Shown here: positions 17,196 through 33,684 of the stretch, one piece after another | Layout of the letters: every line of letters starts with the position of its first letter | How positions within the stretch are numbered: the stretch's first letter is position 1 | From: Octopus vulgaris | Lineage: Eukaryota | Assembly (NCBI GenBank): GCA_951406725.2 | Contig: OX597814.1 | Coordinates: 122,946,001 to 123,010,000, forward strand | Length of the DNA stretch: 64,000 nucleotides | Direction: 5' to 3' | Notes under the pieces: model-generated | Databases searched by the model: none | Told to the model about the DNA's origin: nothing | What the model saw: only the letters and a program-made list of their open reading frames with translations | Program-made: the position numbers and the translations under genes

Positions 17196-18118
17196 TTGGG
17201 TTGTCCGGAAAGTTCGTGCCGATTTTTAAAGGAAAGAAAAAGGTCAATAAATACTTGCCATTACATTTTTAATCAACTAAATATGAAACATTTTGTTGCG
17301 CAATGCGTCTCCATCTTTCCTTTAATTTGAAAATAACCTCTTCCCAGAATTGAGGTGGTTTCGTGGCAAAGAATTGATCAAGGTATCTTTTTATGTCATC
17401 CAAGGAATTGAAATTTTTACCAATAAGACTATTCTGCAGAGACCTGAATAAGTGGAAATCCGAAGGACCAATATTTGGTGAATATGGAGGGTGGGAAAAT
17501 ACATCCCAGCAATTTTTGTCTGGTTTCTAAAACAACACCCTTCTGATCGTTTCTCTTGAATTGCTGCTTTTAACTCGTCCAGTTGTGTGCAGTATTTCTC
17601 AGAGTTAATTGTCTGGTTACTTGGGAGAACCTCATAGTACAGGATTCCTTTCCAATCCCACCAGACACAAAGCAAGACGTTTTTAGGGTGAAGACCCACT
17701 TTTGGGATGGCTAAGGGTGGCTCATGTCGCTTACCCCAGGATTGCTTTCTCTGAACATTTCGGTAGATAATCCTTTTCTCAGCACCAGTCACAATTTGCT
17801 TTAAAAAAGGCGTTTTCATTCCGTTTATAAAGTGAATCACAGATGGAAATGCGATCCAAAAGGTTCTTCTCACTCAACTCGTACCCAAACATCGTAGCGA
17901 TTTGTGTACCCAAGCTTTACCAGGTGCTCATGAACGACGGATTTTGATAGGTTGAGGCTTTCTGCCACTTCTCGGGTTGTGCAATGTGGGTTATTCTCAA
18001 TTAATGACTTGATTTGGTCATCATCTGTAGTGGATGGTCTGCATGATCGCTTTTCATCAGTAAAGCTACAATCTCCAGCTCGGAACCTTGCGAACCACTT
18101 CTGTACAGTTCTTTCGGA
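17196..18118 (-). mobile_element. Mariner element, 5'-truncated, decayed transposase
   Basis: TIR ta|ttgggttgtccggaaagttcgtgccgattt. Motifs ERTVQKWFARF, IVTGAEKR, LHPKNVLLCVWWD and HPPYSPNIGPSDFHLF. The region of the second catalytic Asp is deleted. Confidence 0.92.
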
Positions 18119-18119
18119 G

Positions 18120-18238
18120 TAACGCTGCGATGGACTGGCGTCCCATCCAGCTGGGGGGAACACATACGCCACAGGAACCGGGAAACCGGGCCAATGAGCC
18201 TGGCTAGGCTTGAAAAGGGCGCATAAATAAAAACAAAT
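18120..18238 (+). mobile_element. SINE 3' fragment with V-domain-like motif (possibly the 3' part of family C)
   Basis: gctgcgatggactggcgtcccatccag...ggaaaccggg..atgagcc followed by an A-rich tail. It abuts the mariner truncation. Confidence 0.55.
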
Positions 18239-18249
18239 AATAATTTCAA

Positions 18250-18720
18250 AGGAACAGAGACTGTGGGAGCAGTGATGCACAAAGCAAAGCGAGGACACGA
18301 TTTGGTATTAGTCTAGTTGTTGTGGTAAACACTTTCTTATTGTGCAAACTCACTTTCATTTGTAGGTTGTCTGCATTGTGTAGAGTTTCTGTGTCAGTCG
18401 AACGTTCAGTTTTACAGAACAGAAATTAATTAGAACCTTTAATAAAACATTAATAGTGTCAGGTTGATAGGAGTCAACCAAGAGGAAATGACATCGATTC
18501 TGATAGATTTGTAACCATTGAATAAGAATTAGTTGTTCGTAGATAAATAATTCAACTAAGTTCGGAAATAGCAGAAGGCAATTTAGAAGGAATAGAGAAA
18601 CCTGCAAAGACTGTATAAATGCTCTGTTGTTCTTAATAAATCTATAGAGCATAGATATCATATATTTATTACTTAATCTGCTTTAGTCTGTTCTGATAAG
18701 GTCTTGACTGGCCTTCGGGA
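18250..18720 (-). pseudogene. Old Penelope-like RT/thumb remnant
   Basis: PNLVELFIYEQLILIQWLQIY resembles ANLFM---E---W-RYIDD. Downstream LCFVHHCSHSLCS resembles YL-F-S-HP. Confidence 0.3.
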
Positions 18721-19142: not shown

Positions 19143-19233
<91 letters not shown>

Positions 19234-19282
19234 AAACAAGTAAAAAATAGAAAATGCTAAAATAATTTTATAGTGAACATTT

Positions 19283-19320
19283 CAGTACCGGTTTCGGTCA
19301 TTTTGAGACCTTTTCAACTG
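19283..19320 (-). ncRNA. Minimal type I hammerhead ribozyme, U3-A8 core variant
   Basis: Minus strand CAG-UUGAAAA-GGUC(UCAAAAU)GACC-GAAAC-CG-GUA-CUG: stems I and II, GAAA, NUH triplet and palindromic ACCGGU stem III. Confidence 0.75.
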
Positions 19321-19674
19321 TAACGATTAAATAATTAAATTTAGAAAAATTAGAAGAAAAGTTTTTTTAAAACAATATTTCTATAGTAGTGTTCAGATTT
19401 AAGTGGCATTCTGCCTTTCTCTGACTCCCTTGTTTGCACTTGTGTGTTCGAGGTAGTTGTGAGTTCTTGGTAGGGTAGTAGAGGGAAGGCTGGTGAGGAA
19501 AGGGGGTGGGAGAATCTGGGAGTGCCCTGATGGTCGTATTTTGAATGGTCAGTGGCGGCTGGCAGTCTCAGTTCAATTCAGGAGAATATTTATATCGACA
19601 GGCTTGTTTATAGAATTAGCGTAGGTGTTATACTAAAAAACATTAGTGACAAACTTAAGGGGTAGGGGGTGGAG

Positions 19675-20047: not shown

Positions 20048-21427
20048 TTAATTGTTTGTCGTAGACCCGTTAAGAAGTGGCTTGTATTTTGTAATAAAGA
20101 GATTTTCTTTACTTATTCTTTGTCTCGAGGTTGTATCGTCCCTAAATTGGTAGAGGGGGAAAATTCTGAAGTTTGGTGTTTTTTTGTTGGCGCAAGTATC
20201 TATGTGTTGGCTAAAAGCTATTTTTCTGTTTTGGGGAATTTTTATCTGGGATCTGTGCAGGGCCATTCGTTTACGCAAACCATTTTTTGTTTGGCCTATG
20301 TACTGCTCTTGACACCCGGAGCAGGTTAGTGAGTATATTAGGTTCTCCGAAGCACATGTGAAGTTGCTTTTCACTGTAAACCGTTGTCCCTGTTTGAAGG
20401 AGAACTCAGAACCCTCGATTAGATAGTCGCATATCCCGCAATTGGGTCTTCCACATTTTTTTACTGTCGGCTTCTGTGTTGAAGAGTGAATTCGGGCTTG
20501 TGTAAGGAGACTTTTCATGGATCTAGGCTGTCTTTTGCTTTTTATGATCGTGTGTGTTTGGAGGATTGTGTTCATTCTGTGGTCTTTTTTTAGGAGGGGT
20601 ATGTTGTGGAGGATGGTGTCGAAGGCTTCGTTATTGAGAGGGTTGTGTGTGGAGATGTATGGTAAGGCTTTTGGTTGTAAGTTTTTCTTTGATTTGGGAT
20701 GTCTCAGTTCCTTGATGTTAAGTTGAAGGGCACGTTGAATGCACTTGTCAATAAGTGAAGGTGGATAGTTCCTGGTGATTAGGGTATCTTTTAGTTCTTG
20801 TAGTCGTGTGTCTCTGGTGTTTGCGTTAGAGACTATAGTGCATATCCTTTTTGCTAGATTGAAGGGGATATTCATCCTGGTGTGTCTGGGGTGGCATGAA
20901 TTGAATGGAAGATATTGCTTAGAGTCTGTAGGCTTATAGTATATGTCTGTTTCTATTATATTATTAGCTTTCTTAATGAGGATATCGAGGAAGGGGAGTT
21001 GTTGTTGGCTATATTCCATCGTGAATTGGATGTTTACGTCCAGTCCGTTTAAAATTTTCTGGAATTCTATGAGTTTTTCTATATTTTTATGCCAAATGAT
21101 GAAACAGTCATCTAGATATCTCTTCCAGTTGTTTTCTATGTAGATGGAGAAAGGGCTGCCATATCTTTCTAGAACCTTACGATACAGACTGATCTCTAGG
21201 TATCCTATGACTAGGTTGGCAAAGGAGGGGGCCATTCGTGTACCCATCGCAGTCCCCGATTTTTGTCGGTAGAAGTTGTCATTGAAGGCGAAGAAGTTAT
21301 TTTCCAGGATGAATTTAACCCCTTCTATCACAAATTCTTTTTTGATGCGGTGTGGTAGTTCGTTGGCGTGATTCTCTAGCCAGAATTGGATTGCCTCTAG
21401 TCCTAGGTTGTGGGGGATATTGGAGTA
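20048..21427 (-). CDS. PLE reverse transcriptase (partial) plus GIY-YIG endonuclease, uninterrupted frame
   Basis: The 427 aa ORF extends upstream without stops to the junction. RT motifs QKSGTAMGT and WKRYLDDCF; endonuclease NLIYSLTCSGCQEQYIGQT..RMALH..SQH (CCHH). Confidence 0.9.
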   Translation of the reverse strand, partial: YSNIPHNLGLEAIQFWLENHANELPHRIKKEFVIEGVKFILENNFFAFNDNFYRQKSGTAMGTRMAPSFANLVIGYLEISLYRKVLERYGSPFSIYIENNWKRYLDDCFIIWHKNIEKLIEFQKILNGLDVNIQFTMEYSQQQLPFLDILIKKANNIIETDIYYKPTDSKQYLPFNSCHPRHTRMNIPFNLAKRICTIVSNANTRDTRLQELKDTLITRNYPPSLIDKCIQRALQLNIKELRHPKSKKNLQPKALPYISTHNPLNNEAFDTILHNIPLLKKDHRMNTILQTHTIIKSKRQPRSMKSLLTQARIHSSTQKPTVKKCGRPNCGICDYLIEGSEFSFKQGQRFTVKSNFTCASENLIYSLTCSGCQEQYIGQTKNGLRKRMALHRSQIKIPQNRKIAFSQHIDTCANKKTPNFRIFPLYQFRDDTTSRQRISKENLFITKYKPLLNGSTTNN

Positions 21428-22291
21428 CTTCCATTCAATTCATGCCACCCCAGACACACCAGGATGAATATCCCCTTCAATCTAGCAAAAAGGATATGCA
21501 CTATAGTCTCTAACGCAAACACCAGAGACACACGACTACAAGAACTAAAAGATACCCTAATCACCAGGAACTATCCACCTTCACTTATTGACAAGTGCAT
21601 TCAACGTGCCCTTCAACTTAACATCAAGGAACTGAGACATCCCAAATCAAAGAAAAACTTACAACCAAAAGCCTTACCATACATCTCCACACACAACCCT
21701 CTCAATAACGAAGCCTTCGACACCATCCTCCACAACATACCCCTCCTAAAAAAAGACCACAGAATGAACACAATCCTCCAAACACACACGATCATAAAAA
21801 GCAAAAGACAGCCTAGATCCATGAAAAGTCTCCTTACACAAGCCCGAATTCACTCTTCAACACAGAAGCCGACAGTAAAAAAATGTGGAAGACCCAATTG
21901 CGGGATATGCGACTATCTAATCGAGGGTTCTGAGTTCTCCTTCAAACAGGGACAACGGTTTACAGTGAAAAGCAACTTCACATGTGCTTCGGAGAACCTA
22001 ATATACTCACTAACCTGCTCCGGGTGTCAAGAGCAGTACATAGGCCAAACAAAAAATGGTTTGCGTAAACGAATGGCCCTGCACAGATCCCAGATAAAAA
22101 TTCCCCAAAACAGAAAAATAGCTTTTAGCCAACACATAGATACTTGCGCCAACAAAAAAACATCAAACTTCAGAATTTTCCCCCTCTACCAATTTAGGGA
22201 CGATACAACCTCGAGACAAAGAATAAGTAAAGAAAATCTCTTTATTACAAAATACAAGCCACTTCTTAACGGGTCTACGACAAACAATTAA
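21428..22291 (+). CDS. PLE thumb/linker/GIY-YIG endonuclease coding segment (5'-truncated)
   Basis: The 293 aa ORF is identical to the left-arm C-terminus except one residue. Its first six codons derive from the junction. Confidence 0.8.
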   Translation, partial: LPFNSCHPRHTRMNIPFNLAKRICTIVSNANTRDTRLQELKDTLITRNYPPSLIDKCIQRALQLNIKELRHPKSKKNLQPKALPYISTHNPLNNEAFDTILHNIPLLKKDHRMNTILQTHTIIKSKRQPRSMKSLLTQARIHSSTQKPTVKKCGRPNCGICDYLIEGSEFSFKQGQRFTVKSNFTCASENLIYSLTCSGCQEQYIGQTKNGLRKRMALHRSQIKIPQNRKIAFSQHIDTCANKKTSNFRIFPLYQFRDDTTSRQRISKENLFITKYKPLLNGSTTNN

Positions 22292-23010
22292 TATACCTCA
22301 ACTTTAGAATAAAAGAAAAAAATATATATACACACACAAATACTACACTCCATAGAATCCATTACTAATCAGCCCCTTCATAGCTATATTTACACCCATT
22401 CATATTCTCCCTTCTCTCTTTTTTTCTTCTTCTTCTTCTTCATCATCATCGTTATCATCATCATCGGCGTCATCATCATCGCCACCATCATCACCACCAT
22501 CTTCTCCTTCTCCTCCTTCTTCTTCTTCTTCTTCTTCATCATCATCGTTATCATCATCATCGTCGTCATAATCATCACCACCATCACCATCATCTTCTCC
22601 TTCTCCTTCTCCTTCTTCTTCTTCTTCTTCTTCTTCTTCTTCTTCTTCTTCTTCTTCTCCACCCCCTACCCCTTAAGTTTGTCACTAATGTTTTTTAGTA
22701 TAACACCTACGCTAATTCTATAAACAAGCCTGTCGATATAAATATTCTCCTGAATTGAACTGAGACTGCCAGCCGCCACTGACCATTCAAAATACGACCA
22801 TCAGGGCACTCCCAGATTCTCCCACCCCCTTTCCTCACCAGCCTTCCCTCTACTACCCTACCAAGAACTCACAACTACCTCGAACACACAAGTGCAAACA
22901 AGGGAGTCAGAGAAAGGCAGAATGCCACTTAAATCTGAACACTACTATAGAAATATTGTTTTAAAAAAACTTTTCTTCTAATTTTTCTAAATTTAATTAT
23001 TTAATCGTTA

Positions 23011-23048
23011 CAGTTGAAAAGGTCTCAAAATGACCGAAACCGGTACTG
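23011..23048 (+). ncRNA. Minimal type I hammerhead ribozyme, U3-A8 core variant
   Basis: cag ttgaaaa ggtc tcaaaat gacc gaaac cg gta ctg in the PLE 3' UTR, 60-90 nt before the element end. Confidence 0.75.
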
Positions 23049-23161
23049 AAATGTTCACTATAAAATTATTTTAGCATTTTCTATTTTTTACTTGTTTTTT
23101 CATATATATCAACTCGTGTGTTCCTTTTCACCCTTATACATATATATATATATATATACAT

Positions 23162-24059: not shown

Positions 24060-25500
24060 TATTACTGCTGGCTTGCAGTCTCCTTTTGAGGAAAAGCCTG
24101 GAAGAGGGTACTCCGACGTAAAACTTGCAGTCAACTAAGTATTAATCATCTTGCTTTGCTTGTCACTGGAATCTACTATTTTAACCCAAAGAGTGGCAAA
24201 AGTTTTGTACGAGCGTTTGTCACTGAAATCCAATGAAGTACAGATGCCCCCGACAAAACACCATCATCGTACAATCATCACTTTTCAAAAGTCCTATGGC
24301 AATAGAGGTGTAGCGATGTATGCAGACTTGACCGGTTGGAAGCATACAATTACAAATCCGCACATAAGGCGGCAGGGTTCTTATCTTAACATCGCTAACA
24401 TGTTTTCATGAACATGAACCGCTTCCGGTGGAGAATCCTGTATCTGAGCAGCCCTTTTAAGAACACAGCTCACCTAGATATGCAGGGAAGGTGCTAGAAA
24501 AGTTGCACAAAAAATTGCTATCTTTTCTCTGCTGGTTAATTTACTGTAGCTAAAGATGGTTCAATTTAGCAGGAATGAACAAAGAATTGATATAAACAAT
24601 GATAACAAGTATGCAAGGAAGAAGGTTTCTCTTAACCTGGCCTGTTGGAATGTAAGAATCCCTTTAGATCAAGCAGATAGGCTTAAAGGAAGAACAGCTC
24701 TTGTAACTAAGGGGCTAAGGCGTCTTAATGTTGATATTGCAGCTCTTTCTGAAACAAGATGTTCAGGTAAGGATTATCTTGTCGAAAGAGCAGCAGCTTT
24801 CACATTATTCTGGGTTGGGAAGCCAAAGGGAGAGAAAAGGGAAGGTGGTGTTGGGTTTGTAATCAGAAGTGATTTGGTAAAGGACCTTGAACAACCACAA
24901 AGCATAAACAAACGCATAATGAAACTCCGGATCACCCTTTCTTGTGAACGTTTTGTAACTGTTTTCTCCATTTATGCTCCTACACTTTCAGCTAGTGAGG
25001 AAAATATCCATGCATTTTATGGAGCTTAGAAGTATTCTGTCTGTTCCTTTGAATGAGAAGTTGGTTGTGCTTGGTGACTTTAGTGCACGTGTTGGTAGAG
25101 ACTGTGGTGCTTGGAATGTACTTGGGCGTTACGGAATAGAAAAGATGAGCAACAATGTGTTGCATGTGCTACAAATGTGCTCTGAGCTAGGGTTGGTTGT
25201 TGGGAATACTTTCATAAGTTGAAGCATAGAGTTATCTGGATTCACCCAAGATCAAAGCAAGATCACATGAATGACTTCGTATTAACTCGGAAACCTGACT
25301 TACAAGATTTGTGCAGCCTCAAGCTATTGTGTGGTGTTGATTGCAATATTGATTACAAAATGATTAGGGCTAAGTTCAAGTTCAGGGTTCAGGGCCTGCA
25401 AGAAGATTTGTAGTGCAGGTGTACGAGTACCAAAGAGAATTGATGTAGGGCGGCTAAAACAACCACAAGCTTGCAGTTATTTCAGGAGAGATGCAGCAAT
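24060..25500 (+). mobile_element. RTE-clade LINE 5' part: probable 5' UTR and decayed AP endonuclease
   Basis: LACWNVR, DIAALSETR, GGVGF, IYAPT, VLGDFSARVG, VGNTF and WIHPRSK in shifted frames (24556-25413). The 5' boundary is approximate. Confidence 0.85.
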
Positions 25501-25751: not shown

Positions 25752-28135
25752 AGAAATTTAAAAAGGAAAATATGCAAACTTACATGGTTTTAATATAATT
25801 TTTAATATATCGACCGGTTTCGCTATCGCTATTCATGATATTATGTCAAATTTATTGGAATATATATTTTTTCTTAAGAAGAAATTTGGTCCATGTTGTG
25901 TGTGATGAAATTCACGAGCGAATGACTTCACAAGTAGACAAATAAAGGGAGGTAATTGGCTGTTATTATTGTTATTGTTGTGTGTAAAGGAGATAACTGT
26001 TCGGCTTTCGGTAATGGGTGAGGATTAAATATGTGTACAGAAAAGAGACAGGTTTTAAAAAAACCTTGTTTAGTAGGGGATTTATGTCCAGTGATGTAAT
26101 CGTGAATGGAATATGTAAAAATATAAAAGTTGGTTACGCGTGCATATTAAGACGTGTTTTGTATTTTTCAATGAAAAAAAAATTCTTTATTTAACCATTC
26201 TAGTTGAGAGATTGCGTCTTTGCACTGGTAGTAAGGGAAGACTGTGAAATTTGGTTTGATGTTACCTGCACATTTTTCTATGTGTTCAGTGAGAGGAAGT
26301 TGTCTGTATTGCGGGAAACGGATTTGCTCCTTATGCAGAGTGATTCTCTTTCTCAAAGTTAAACTCGTTTGTCTAATGTACTGATGACCGCAACCCGAGC
26401 AGGTTATTGCATAAATTAGTTTATCAGAGGTACAGCTGAAGCTAGTTTTAATTGTGAACCTTTGTCCTTGTTTGAAAAGGAAACCTGAGCCTTCAAGCAG
26501 GTTCGATAGTTCAGGCGTCCACATTTTTCAACCGTTGGTTTCGTGGTTGTTTTGTAAAGCTTTGCATTTGTTAGTAGTCTCTTTAGCGATTTGTCTTGTT
26601 TTTTTGCATTTGATGACTTTGTGTGTTTTCAGGATGTCGTTCATTTTTGGATCTCTAGTTAGTAAAAAGAGAGTTTGCACAATAGTGTTGAATGCCTCAC
26701 TGTTTCTGGGGTTGTGTGTTGATATAAAAGGTAATGTTTTGGTTTGAGGTGTGGTGCTATGTTTTCTTGTTCTTAGTGTTTTTGTGTCTAATTGTTTGGC
26801 ACGTTTAATTCCCTCGTCGATAAGAGAGGGTGGATATTGTCTTTCAATAAGTGTTGTTTTGAGGTCTTGAAGACGAAGGTCCCGAGTTGTTCTATCAGAC
26901 ACTATTGTGCAGATCCTTTTTGCTAAGTTAAAAGGGATGCTTATTTTTATGTGTTTCGGGTGGCATGAGTTAAGAAGAAGATATTGTTTTGAATCAGTTG
27001 GTTTATAATAAATGTCAGTTATGATTTCATTGTTAACTTTTTTTATCATGATGTCTAAAAATGGAAGTTGTTCTTTGTTATATTCCATTGTGAATTGAAT
27101 GTTATTATTTATGCCATTTAGTGTTGTTTTGAAATCCAAAAATTTGTCGATGTCCTCCTTCCAAATGATAAAACAGTCACCCAGGTATCGCTTCCATTTT
27201 GCTCTTATGTAGAGGTAAAATGGGTAACCATATTTCTGAAGTGATATTTCATATAAGGTGAATTCAAAATAACCCATTATTAGGTTCGCAAGGACAGGAG
27301 CTGCTTTCGTCCCCATCGCAACTCCACATTTCTGACGATAGTATGTGTTCTCAAATAGGAAATAATTGTTCTGAAGTATAAATTTTAAGGATTCAATAAT
27401 AAAAATCTGGTTTATGCGTTCCGGGAGGACTTCAGTGTACTTTTCCAACCAGAATTTAATTGCTTTTATTCCATAATCATGGGGGATGTTGATGTAAGGA
27501 TTGATTACATCGAGGGTGACCAATACTGCCTCTTCATTAATCGTTTTTGATAGGTGTTCTAGCATGTCTAAATCATCCCTAATGAAGCTTTTGATGTATT
27601 TCAGCAAGGGTTTCAGTAGGATGTCTAGAAAATTGCTTAGTCAGTGGGTTTCACAGGCCGGCCCAGCTACAATGAGTCTTAAAGTCAAGTCTTCTGGCGT
27701 TTGGATATTTATATATTTGCCTGGTGATTGTTTGCAGGCTTCATTGATTATCTTGCTCTCGTGTATTTTAGGGAGGCCATAAAAAAGACTGGGTTTACAT
27801 TTGAAGTTCGCGATGTAGTCTGTTTCTTTTTCTGTCAGGTCTTTTCCATGTAGAAGAATTAAGGATGCAAGATTTTTCATTGTTTTTTGTTGTTTATAGT
27901 TTATAATTTTTGCGTAGAAGGGCTCGTTTTCTAATATGGAAAGTACTAGTTTTTTATAGTGTTCTGTGTCCATCAGAACTACAGCACTTCCTTTGTCAGC
28001 TTCTTCAATTGTCAGGTCTTTGTCGTTTTTTAGTTCAGTCAGATTTTTCCATTCTAGATTGTTGAGGTTAGGATTAATTTTTCGTTTAATAGATGTGTAG
28101 GGGAAATTTTGGATATGGTTGCAGTAGTCATCCAG

Positions 28136-28140
<5 letters not shown>
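25751..28140 (-). mobile_element. Second Penelope-like family (Neptune-type), 5'-truncated, frameshifted
   Basis: ADKGSAVV, FYGLPKIH, LRLIVAG, YINIP, GVAMGT, RYLGD (catalytic DD mutated), YKPTD and LIYAITCSGCGHQYIRQT. Flanked by (TA)n on both sides. Confidence 0.93.
25807..25841 (-). ncRNA. Minimal type I hammerhead ribozyme, A3-U8 core variant
   Basis: Minus strand AUAUC-AUGAAUA-GC(GAUA)GC-GAAAC-CG-GUC-GAUAU, ~55 nt from the PLE 3' end. Confidence 0.68.
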
Positions 28141-28212
<72 letters not shown>

Positions 28213-28216
<4 letters not shown>

Positions 28217-28420
28217 ATTAATCCAAACATGAACAAAGAGAAAACACAACAGCGCGAGGACGTGGAACAAGTATAGTGTTATTGGACGCTCAGGAAAGGA
28301 AAGAAAGAAGGAGGATTTAACGTTTTGAATGGAGCTCTTCGTCAGAAACATTGAAAAAGGAAAGGTTCAAGGAAGGGAAAAAGGAGAAAGAAAATCGCCA
28401 ACGATACACACGCGGTCACA
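28213..28420 (-). mobile_element. Short non-coding PLE-3'UTR-like piece with degenerate hammerhead (28316-28348)
   Basis: Minus strand ttt-ctgacga-agagctccattc-aaaac-gtta-aa: canonical CUGACGA, GAAA mutated, palindromic AACGTT. Bounded by (TG)n and (CA)n(TA)n. Confidence 0.5.
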
Positions 28421-28514: not shown

Positions 28515-29304
28515 CCCTAATAGAACACTTCGAATTTATTTTTCATTAACTTTCTATGACAGTTATCTATTCTCTGTATTATATAAAATGGCTGTTTCGT
28601 TTCTTTGTCCATGCCTGGTCGATTTTTATACCAACTACTCGTGATGTCAACAACTGTTAGATATTGTATGGCTATAAGTCTCCTGAGTTTGATAGCTAAA
28701 TACATTATACGAGCTTGTAAGATGCAATGTAATTTTGGCAAACTTTTCATTGAAAAAGAATTTAAAACCCTGTTTTCCCCTGACATCTGTGGCCCTTCCC
28801 ACTGTCAGGTCATTTTAATGCGATATGCATTGATATCGTTATGAAATTTTATTATTTTCCATAAAAGAAAAACACAACTGTTCGTTACTAACTAAATTAC
28901 TCGGGTTAAATGTATCAATTATGTTCAAAAATAATTGTGAACTTAAACTGGTTTCATAAAAGAACTATAACTGATTTAATCATTCACTTACGAAAGTGGT
29001 ATTTCGCACACAATAAAAGATTGTTACTTGAATATATTATAGAATTTTCTCTTCAAAACTATTCTATTTACATAAAAATACTCATAAAATCTAAAATACA
29101 GAGGTTTAAAATTAGTTATTAAGCCACAGTTATGCTTTTATGTAGCTTTTTTACGATGAAGCTTACTAAATAGGCATCGATAAATTTAGGATGGTGGTTT
29201 GGTAGTAATGTTTGATCGTGGGATAAAAATTCTTTACGGTATTTGTCCGAGCGCTTATGTTCTGAGTTCGAATATCGCCAGAACATCGCAGCGTTACTCA
29301 AACA

Positions 29305-33036: not shown

Positions 33037-33044
33037 TCATCTTC

Positions 33045-33075
<31 letters not shown>

Positions 33076-33640
33076 CTCCCCTCTTCTTCCCAACTTTATC
33101 ACCAATGCTTTTTAGTATAACACCTACGCAAATTCTATAAACAAACCTTTCAATAGAAATATTTTCATGAATTGAACAGCAGGAACTGCTAGCAACCACT
33201 GACCAACGACAATCAAGGCAATCCCAAATTCTTCCTCCTCTTCTCCCCTTCCTTCCCATTCTTCTTCTTCTTCTTCTTCTTCTTCTTCTTCTTCTTCTTC
33301 TTCTTCTTCTTCTTCTTCTTCTTCTTCTTCTTCTTCTTCTTCTTCTTCTTCTTTTTTTTCTTCTTCCCTACCAAGAATTCACATGGACCTTGAACCCACA
33401 AGAGTAAACAAGAGAGACAGAGAAAGGCAGAAACAAGGAAAATGCCACTTATATTTGAACACTATACAAATATTCTTTTAAAAAAACTTTTCTTTTAATT
33501 TTTCTAAATTTAATTATTTAATAGTTACAGTTGAAAAGGTCTCAAATGACCGAAACAGGTACTGAAATGTTCCTTATAAAATAATTTTAGCATTTTCTAT
33601 CTTGACTTGTTTTTTCATATATATCAACTCGTGTGTCCCT

Positions 33641-33646
<6 letters not shown>
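33037..33646 (+). mobile_element. Solo 3' UTR of the first PLE family (diverged copy)
   Basis: Colinear with 22600-23130 (tagtataacacctacgc, aatgccactt, ttttcatatatatcaactcgtgtg). Lies between two (TA)n tracts. Confidence 0.9.
33528..33564 (+). ncRNA. Hammerhead motif (U3-A8 variant), third copy
   Basis: cag ttgaaaa ggtc tcaaat gacc gaaac ag gta ctg. Core and stems are conserved; differences from the 23011 copy fall only in loops. Confidence 0.7.

Positions 33647-33684
<38 letters not shown>

Follow-up and report, generated by a model that had tools for sequence, protein, structure and literature searches.

A candidate minimal hammerhead ribozyme with a U3-A8 core in Penelope-like elements of Octopus vulgaris

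Introduction

Przybilski and Hammann are said to have found in 2007 that any Watson-Crick pair at positions 3 and 8 of the hammerhead core retains some cleavage, depending on context. Natural hammerheads in several of which the C3-G8 pair covaries to U3-A8, often with a stem II of only 2 bp, were described by Perreault et al. in 2011 (PMC3088659). Of the double mutants at 3-8 in a pairwise scan of a type III hammerhead, the G-C swap alone rescued activity, and the others were low (PMC9901934). An inhibitory C3-G17 trap has also been described in the hammerhead (PMC3884650).

The closest described systems are carried by Penelope-like elements (PLEs). Cervera and De la Pena reported minimal hammerheads (min-HHRs) with U3-A8 in the pseudo-LTRs (pLTRs) of the Schistosoma mansoni Cercyon PLE in 2014, with about 1,300 matches, and stated that their own CUGANGA descriptor misses U3-A8 (PMC4209133). 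The S. mansoni motif was silent as a monomer and weakly active as a dimer or trimer, with low rates, and the same paper proposes a model in which one motif at each end serves RNA processing for retrotransposition. Lunse, Weinberg and Breaker describe, by the title of their paper, small PLE-associated hammerhead variants that cleave as dimers (PMC5785218). The PAc hammerhead of an Anolis Poseidon element cleaved only in the presence of the element's protein and shows rescue at 3-8; insertion in vitro could do without its cleavage, and RNA-seq gave no reads with a start or end at the cut (PMC11167929). Cleavage was found in one of nine retrozyme dimers (bioRxiv 2026.07.22.740005). The features of EN+ PLEs, among which a CX2-5CxxC linker defines the Neptune/Nematis type, are given in PMC8557442, which also reports that Naiads proliferate without canonical hammerheads.

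Results

We analyzed a 64,000-nt stretch of Octopus vulgaris contig OX597814.1 (positions 122,946,001 to 123,010,000, forward strand), called the window. A sequence-only reading had placed a PLE-borne minimal hammerhead with a compensated core at three sites, and its sequence and all three sets of coordinates were correct (Table 1). In copy 2, the core from U3 to A9 spans 23014-23020, with U3 at U23014 and A8 at A23019. The 4-bp stem II (23021-24/23032-35) has G10.1-C11.1 (G23021-C23035) as its closing pair and is followed by GAAA at 23036-39. Stem III has 2 bp, and its six bases form the palindrome ACCGGU (23039-44). N17 is A23045, the last base of the GUA triplet, and the predicted cut lies right after it. 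Stem I is CAG/CUG and, allowing for a single A-A mismatch, probably reaches to 23006-23053. The order of N3-UGAN-N8-A, GAAA and UH around three stems is that of a type I hammerhead; the canonical C3 and G8 are absent, and U3 and A8 can pair in their place. A9 directly adjoins G10.1, without the extra base between 9 and 10.1 that is common, though not universal, in min-HHRs.

The hammerhead pattern matched three times in the window against 0.03 expected, and 0 of 100 shuffles reached three. A fourth match from a relaxed scan (29027-29088, minus strand) is AT-rich with long loops and was set aside. That scan demanded a 4-bp stem II and therefore missed the A3-U8 motif listed in Table 1. The best Rfam match for a 171-base stretch was Hammerhead_HH9 at 19.7 bits (E 0.01), below the gathering score of 52. 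A canonical motif of the same genome was also under threshold (Hammerhead_1, 12.3 of 34 bits), so the Rfam miss is not due to U3-A8 alone. No hammerhead was among the 150 of 240 Rfam matches listed for the whole window, where microsatellite noise was seen. In stability, the monomer fold did not stand out from shuffled sequences (z −0.6 to −1.1). The very short palindromic stem III (ACCGGU) that allows min-HHRs to dimerize is present and is broken in copy 3. That it favors a dimer, as the sequence-only reading had proposed, is borne out in silico: the homodimer has a minimum free energy (MFE) of −27.1 kcal/mol vs. 2 × −9.8 kcal/mol, with stem III formed between the molecules.

Table 1. Positions of the PLE-related and other features. 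Positions refer to the window, except for the last two rows, which refer to locus L332.
Feature	Position	Strand	Remarks
Minimal type I hammerhead, copy 1	19283-19320	-	identical to copy 2; inverted arm of the same insertion
Minimal type I hammerhead, copy 2	23011-23048	+	38-nt motif, U3-A8 core
Minimal type I hammerhead, copy 3	33528-33564	+	one base shorter; in an older, 5'-truncated PLE copy
pLTR, minus arm	19222..19664	-	without tail, then (TA)n
5'-truncated PLE ORF, 463 aa, inverted arm	20048..21439	-	RT end and GIY-YIG; RVT_1 E 0.00085, GIY-YIG E 0.0002, both under curated cut-offs
5'-truncated PLE ORF, 294 aa	21407..22291	+	RT thumb, C-X4-C-X2-C linker, GIY-YIG endonuclease (E 7.8e-05)
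pLTR, plus arm	22667..23143	+	99.4% match to 5' pLTR of full copy L211
34-nt tail extension of plus-arm pLTR	23110-23143	+	3' ends cluster at +64 and +98 from the cut
Non-coding 3' fragment of the U3-A8 PLE family	33037..33658	+	78-86% identical; right after the unrelated RT frame
A3-U8 hammerhead, second PLE lineage	25807..25841	-	GUC triplet; stem II of 2 bp; stem III palindrome shared with copy 2; not noticed in the sequence-only reading
Broken RT + GIY-YIG ORF, second PLE lineage	26168..28366	-	~65% DNA identity to the first lineage
Non-PLE RT frame, 479 aa	31526-32965	+	PLE copy 3 starts just after
Endonuclease/exonuclease/phosphatase fragment	24550-25029	+	
Frame resembling a mariner-type transposase	17870-18307	-	presumed fragment
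U3-G8 motif in L332	787-812	-	
U3-G8 motif in L332	5638-5663	+	

The assignment to a PLE holds: RT and GIY-YIG ORFs lie upstream on the same strand, and the motif occurs in both pLTRs of a full copy, L211. This copy has the order pLTR-ORF-pLTR, with direct 443-bp pLTRs that are 99.3% identical and carry one motif each. Its two motifs are 4,398 nt apart and sense to the ORF, which is broken in two places. The ATG of the full element lies 123 nt after the predicted cut. One motif per pLTR, sense to the ORF, was seen in L333 as well as in L211. Copies 1 and 2 of the window belong to a single inverted, 5'-truncated insertion, of which they form the two arms (100% complementarity over 454 nt), and therefore count once. 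The sequence-only reading had counted three copies; the motif is indeed at all three places, but they do not represent three insertions. All three are truncated passengers. The elements show an RT followed by a C-terminal GIY-YIG, pLTRs, an inverted 5'-truncated copy and a 30-40-bp tail, as in EN+ PLEs, and both window ORFs have a C-X4-C-X2-C linker before GIY-YIG, as in Neptune/Nematis. Judged on these sequence features, the putative host type is an EN+ PLE of Neptune/Nematis type, whose inverted arms, (TA)n targets, 34-nt tail and linker match the description in PMC8557442.

The U3-A8 family is young and high-copy, with 100% identity over 141 nt in 40 of the 40 loci scored out of 436 candidates. 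In L333 (4734-4855, minus strand), a truncated pLTR of this family is joined 64 nt upstream of the 5' hammerhead of a U3-G8 element on the same strand. Both hammerheads share the palindrome, and a heterodimer is possible. The window also holds a non-PLE RT frame and an endonuclease/exonuclease/phosphatase fragment, which are probably LINE remnants, and a frame that looks like a mariner-type transposase fragment.

Copy 3 differs from the others by one base lost in loop II and a C to A change at 33557. The claim that it differs only in loops is right for the former. Position 33557, in contrast, is a loop position in the monomer only, and the private A there (1/59 homologous stretches) breaks the dimer palindrome, and with it the 6-bp self-duplex in the prediction is lost (−8.3 to 0.0 kcal/mol). 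This change is decay and not tolerated variation, and copy 3 is probably inert. Between copies 2 and 3, ~45 bases of AT-rich flank just upstream are as conserved as the motif; consequently, the three copies alone do not show selection, and copy 3, with its palindrome-breaking change, does not supply the evidence of selection for which it had been used. Within the family, differences numbered 11/885 in the core and 963/9810 in the flank; as the loci were picked on the motif, we do not take these figures as proof.

At the base of stem II, G10.1 is changed to A in 9/59 stretches and C11.1 to U in 20/59, giving G-C, G-U and A-U subfamilies. These two changes were the only stem II variants listed across four public sequencing runs, in which 0 of 39 listed variant places were among the 17 positions of core and stem III (chance probability ~0.2); made up of contigs, the runs are uninformative on RNA ends. 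Both the length and the sequence of loop II vary. It is in these stem II changes between subfamilies that real signal emerges.

The 3' ends of insertions were located relative to the predicted cut. Among 81 ends counted, 42 lay at +64, 24 at +98 and none at the cut itself. Only one piece had its 5' start in the 0-4 bin, a count biased by the choice of loci with a whole motif. Since no insertion ends lie at the cut, the reverse-transcribed template would be uncut or re-ligated RNA. The sequence-only reading had the ribozyme simply processing PLE RNA ends, which is not what inserted 3' ends 64 or 98 nt downstream of the cut show.

Genome-wide counts (G000) were obtained for each combination at positions 3 and 8 using patterns with the shared stem III ACCGGU and a reversed-pattern control. 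U3-A8 gave 11,549 matches (control 66), A3-U8 1,760 (323), C3-G8 179 (31) and G3-C8 172 (54). The four remaining classes, which overlap, gave 661 vs. 301 for R-R, 1,029 vs. 203 for Y-Y, 666 vs. 260 for K-K and 694 vs. 691 for M-M (A/C-A/C). With any 4-nt stem III, canonical C3-G8 had 3,801 matches vs. 391 in the control, which makes canonical cores common as well, and a first look for A3-U8 with a 2-bp stem II returned 1,470 candidates. Stem I was scored in the first loci in genome order (six previously sampled M-M loci were not recounted). At least five of its six pairs formed in 22/30 U-A, 18/30 A-U, 26/30 C-G and 21/30 G-C loci, vs. 2/15 R-R, 0/15 Y-Y, 6/30 K-K and 5/24 M-M loci. No PLE lineage was found among the listed R-R, Y-Y or M-M matches. 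A C3-U8 repeat (14/15 Y-Y loci) and an A3-G8 repeat (5/15 R-R loci) were rejected as hammerheads, as both are without stem I and have no PLE protein in their 1.5-kb flanks. At positions 1501-1528 of L230-L244, an abundant unrelated repeat mimics the C3-U8 core plus GAAACCGGUC and has no stem I.

Among 74 endonuclease matches, which are redundant and pre-selected loci, 66 had a motif downstream: 40 U-A, 16 A-U, 8 G-C, 2 mismatched single copies and 0 C-G. Three U-A lineages, one A-U lineage and one G-C lineage encode RT-EN proteins ~50-58% identical to that of the window. The G3-C8 lineage (L193, L206, L209 and L210, positions 1501-1526) has a 1-2-bp stem II and a GUA triplet and avoids C17. 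On an unrooted tree of 23 of 24 picked rows, made by a quick method, the 3-8 types fit the protein lineages with the minimum of three changes. L198 was left out for its length. L153, in which one lineage's endonuclease lies 946 nt from another's motif, was treated as neighboring insertions and also left out.

Lineage-level covariation was seen in stem I, stem II and the 3-8 pair. In an alignment of 19 lineage rows, pairing reaches 89.5% of cells, as opposed to 56.2 ± 2.9 in shuffled alignments (0/500) and 31-41% when slid; the choice of rows was by hand and by pattern, and the shuffle test is inflated by relatedness among them. For each of the six pairs of stem I, both sides change. The search patterns impose the core and the 3-8 pairing; stem I lies outside them. 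U4, G5, A6 and A9 are invariant in 19/19 rows, which is likewise imposed. L141 (broken core) and L096 (a misaligned retrozyme) were dropped from this alignment, and L152 was added. The view of the sequence-only reading that the 3-8 pair is compensated is supported, and the U-A, A-U and G-C lineages of this genome are stronger evidence than its three copies.

With the shared stem III, 24/30 C3-G8 loci belong to a 359-nt tandem family without PLE protein. L094-L120 (e.g., G000:C1:20002278-20004542) contain 359-360-nt tandem repeats with canonical C3-G8 and the same palindrome, often in inverted arrangements. This family looks like a non-LTR retrozyme mobilized by PLEs. The U3-A8 motif does not have the short non-coding tandem units of a non-LTR retrozyme and sits in a coding element. 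At positions 1501-1534 of L245-L266, two abundant canonical CUGANGA families have a 7-bp stem II and a stem III other than ACCGGU. No PLE protein was tied to the canonical families in 23 loci or five longer stretches, and consequently there is no C3-G8 PLE outgroup with which to root the tree.

A wobble core also belongs to a PLE lineage. In L332-L336, U3-G8 is combined with the loss of one base beside N17; this lineage accounts for 43 of the first 100 K-K matches and 15/30 K-K loci and is nested in a U-A lineage in the tree. Its motifs have two near-invariant forms, and L332 has an open RT-EN frame of 775 aa. The lineage is young and has many identical motifs, and Watson-Crick pairing at 3-8 is therefore not a strict requirement for recent spread. 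N17 is A in 21/21 G3 loci, C in 16/18 A3 loci and A in 12/22 U3 loci, counts that rest on few independent lineages. In the U3-A8 family, U3 pairs with A17 in the MFE folds of both monomer and dimer.

Discussion

We consider it likely that the minimal type I hammerhead in the PLE pLTR is a slow, conditional ribozyme whose cut after GUA would require the pairing of two copies via ACCGGU, probably with the help of protein. We infer that the hammerhead fold is under selection in master copies, and the folding model points to dimer formation. Two motifs, in tandem pLTRs or in two transcripts, would pair through the palindrome, and the dimer would then cut slowly after GUA, probably assisted by the element's own RT-EN protein. 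Cleavage could trim read-through or tandem transcripts to RNA of unit length or make circles; alternatively, it could generate a 5' end ahead of the ORF. The RT would enter the RNA 64-98 nt downstream of the cut. The U3-A17 fold, the 0/81 3' ends at the cut, the spread of U3-G8, the low activity of 3-8 double mutants other than G-C (PMC9901934), the PAc results on insertion and RNA-seq reads (PMC11167929) and the cleavage of one in nine retrozyme dimers speak against this reading.

Several of these points are shared by a reading that we consider doubtful, namely that the fold is kept for a non-cleaving role in protein binding or RNA dimerization, that it places the RT start 64-98 nt downstream and that catalysis is vestigial. 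Such a role fits the insertion ends, which have set places relative to the motif (+64 and +98) and do not lie at the cut, and it fits the recent spread of a U3-G8 lineage with one base lost and the dominance of non-canonical cores in the ACCGGU-class counts. Outside this genome, PAc cleavage is dispensable for insertion in vitro (PMC11167929), and Naiads spread without canonical hammerheads (PMC8557442). Against this reading, N17 avoids pairing with N3 in the G3 and A3 lineages, which fits a need for an open cleavage site. The 3-8 pair, moreover, matters in the active conformation, and U4, G5, A6 and A9 are invariant in the 19 rows, where the search patterns impose them. At the other extreme, along the lines suggested by the sequence-only reading, is an efficient ribozyme by which every transcript would be cut to give the RNA ends for retrotransposition. 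Full elements do carry one motif at each end, as in the model of PMC4209133, and with a circle that is cut and re-ligated, the motif would likewise stay whole in insertions. We nevertheless regard this as improbable, as none of the 81 3' ends falls at the cut and only one piece starts in the 0-4 bin (in a 5' count biased by motif picking), no loop I-II tertiary contact is evident, and the PLE min-HHR rates reported in PMC4209133 are low.

A chance likeness that arose in AT-rich repeat DNA and was spread by transposition would explain why the monomer folds no better than shuffles, why Rfam scores the motif under its gathering threshold and why unrelated repeats such as the C3-U8 family (14/15 loci) give core-like matches. 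It is, however, hard to reconcile with lineages whose RT-EN proteins are ~50-58% identical and in which the motif stays at one position while the stem I sequences differ and remain complementary. The pairing in the 19 rows and the lineage data largely refute chance, to which we assign a negligible probability. The slow, dimer-dependent ribozyme is the preferred reading.

The U3-A8 hammerhead of this locus is a fresh example of a variant published in 2011 for nature and in 2014 for PLEs. The novelty implied by the sequence-only reading does not stand, as U3-A8 has been in print for PLE hammerheads since 2014 (PMC4209133), and the motif alone changes nothing. Its statement that CUGANGA searches miss such cores agrees with what PMC4209133 says of its own descriptor, and 11,549 U-A vs. 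179 C-G matches suggest that CUGANGA censuses miss most hammerheads with an ACCGGU stem III in this genome. Tentatively, one PLE clade may have run through a series at 3-8, with U-A dominant (~11,500), A-U and G-C fixed separately and a young U-G with the loss of one base. Three Watson-Crick pairs in related PLE lineages are natural support for the 3-8 tertiary pair, and U-A, A-U, G-C and U-G cores in one clade allow one to ask whether cleavage rate tracks lineage success. Natural A3-U8, G3-C8 and U3-G8 PLE lineages were not found in a literature search, a weak blank given that the likeliest source (Lunse et al.) and alignments in figures were not covered. If unreported and active, these lineages would be a natural mutant series in which selection of PLE hammerheads for attenuated cleavage, gated by protein or dimer formation, could be weighed against selection for the fold alone.

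The natural U3-A8 hammerheads of PMC3088659 have the same core swap; the passages of that paper do not tie them to PLEs and give no A3-U8 or G3-C8. The putative U3-A17 pairing resembles the inhibitory C3-G17 trap of PMC3884650. Like the Cercyon min-HHRs of S. mansoni (PMC4209133), the motif described here has U3-A8, lies in pLTRs and occurs mostly as single or inverted motifs from truncated copies. A 2-bp palindromic stem III, a 4-bp stem II (7-8 in Cercyon), the lack of an added base from 9 to 10.1 and the number of matches (~11,500 as opposed to ~1,300) set it apart from them. The PLE hammerheads of Drosophila, rotifer, shrimp and mosquito are also of type I with a small palindromic stem/loop III and a dimer model; the text of PMC4209133 gives no swapped cores for them, and the alignments there are figures. 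The likeness to the small dimer-cleaving PLE hammerheads of PMC5785218 is one of title only. In PAc (PMC11167929), as here, a pLTR hammerhead lies near the ORF start, and ends and tail are set by internal RT start sites and not by the cut. PAc, however, is a canonical C3-G8 hammerhead of the Poseidon clade that overlaps the start codon, whereas the predicted cut here lies 123 nt before the ATG of an element with a linker of Neptune/Nematis type.
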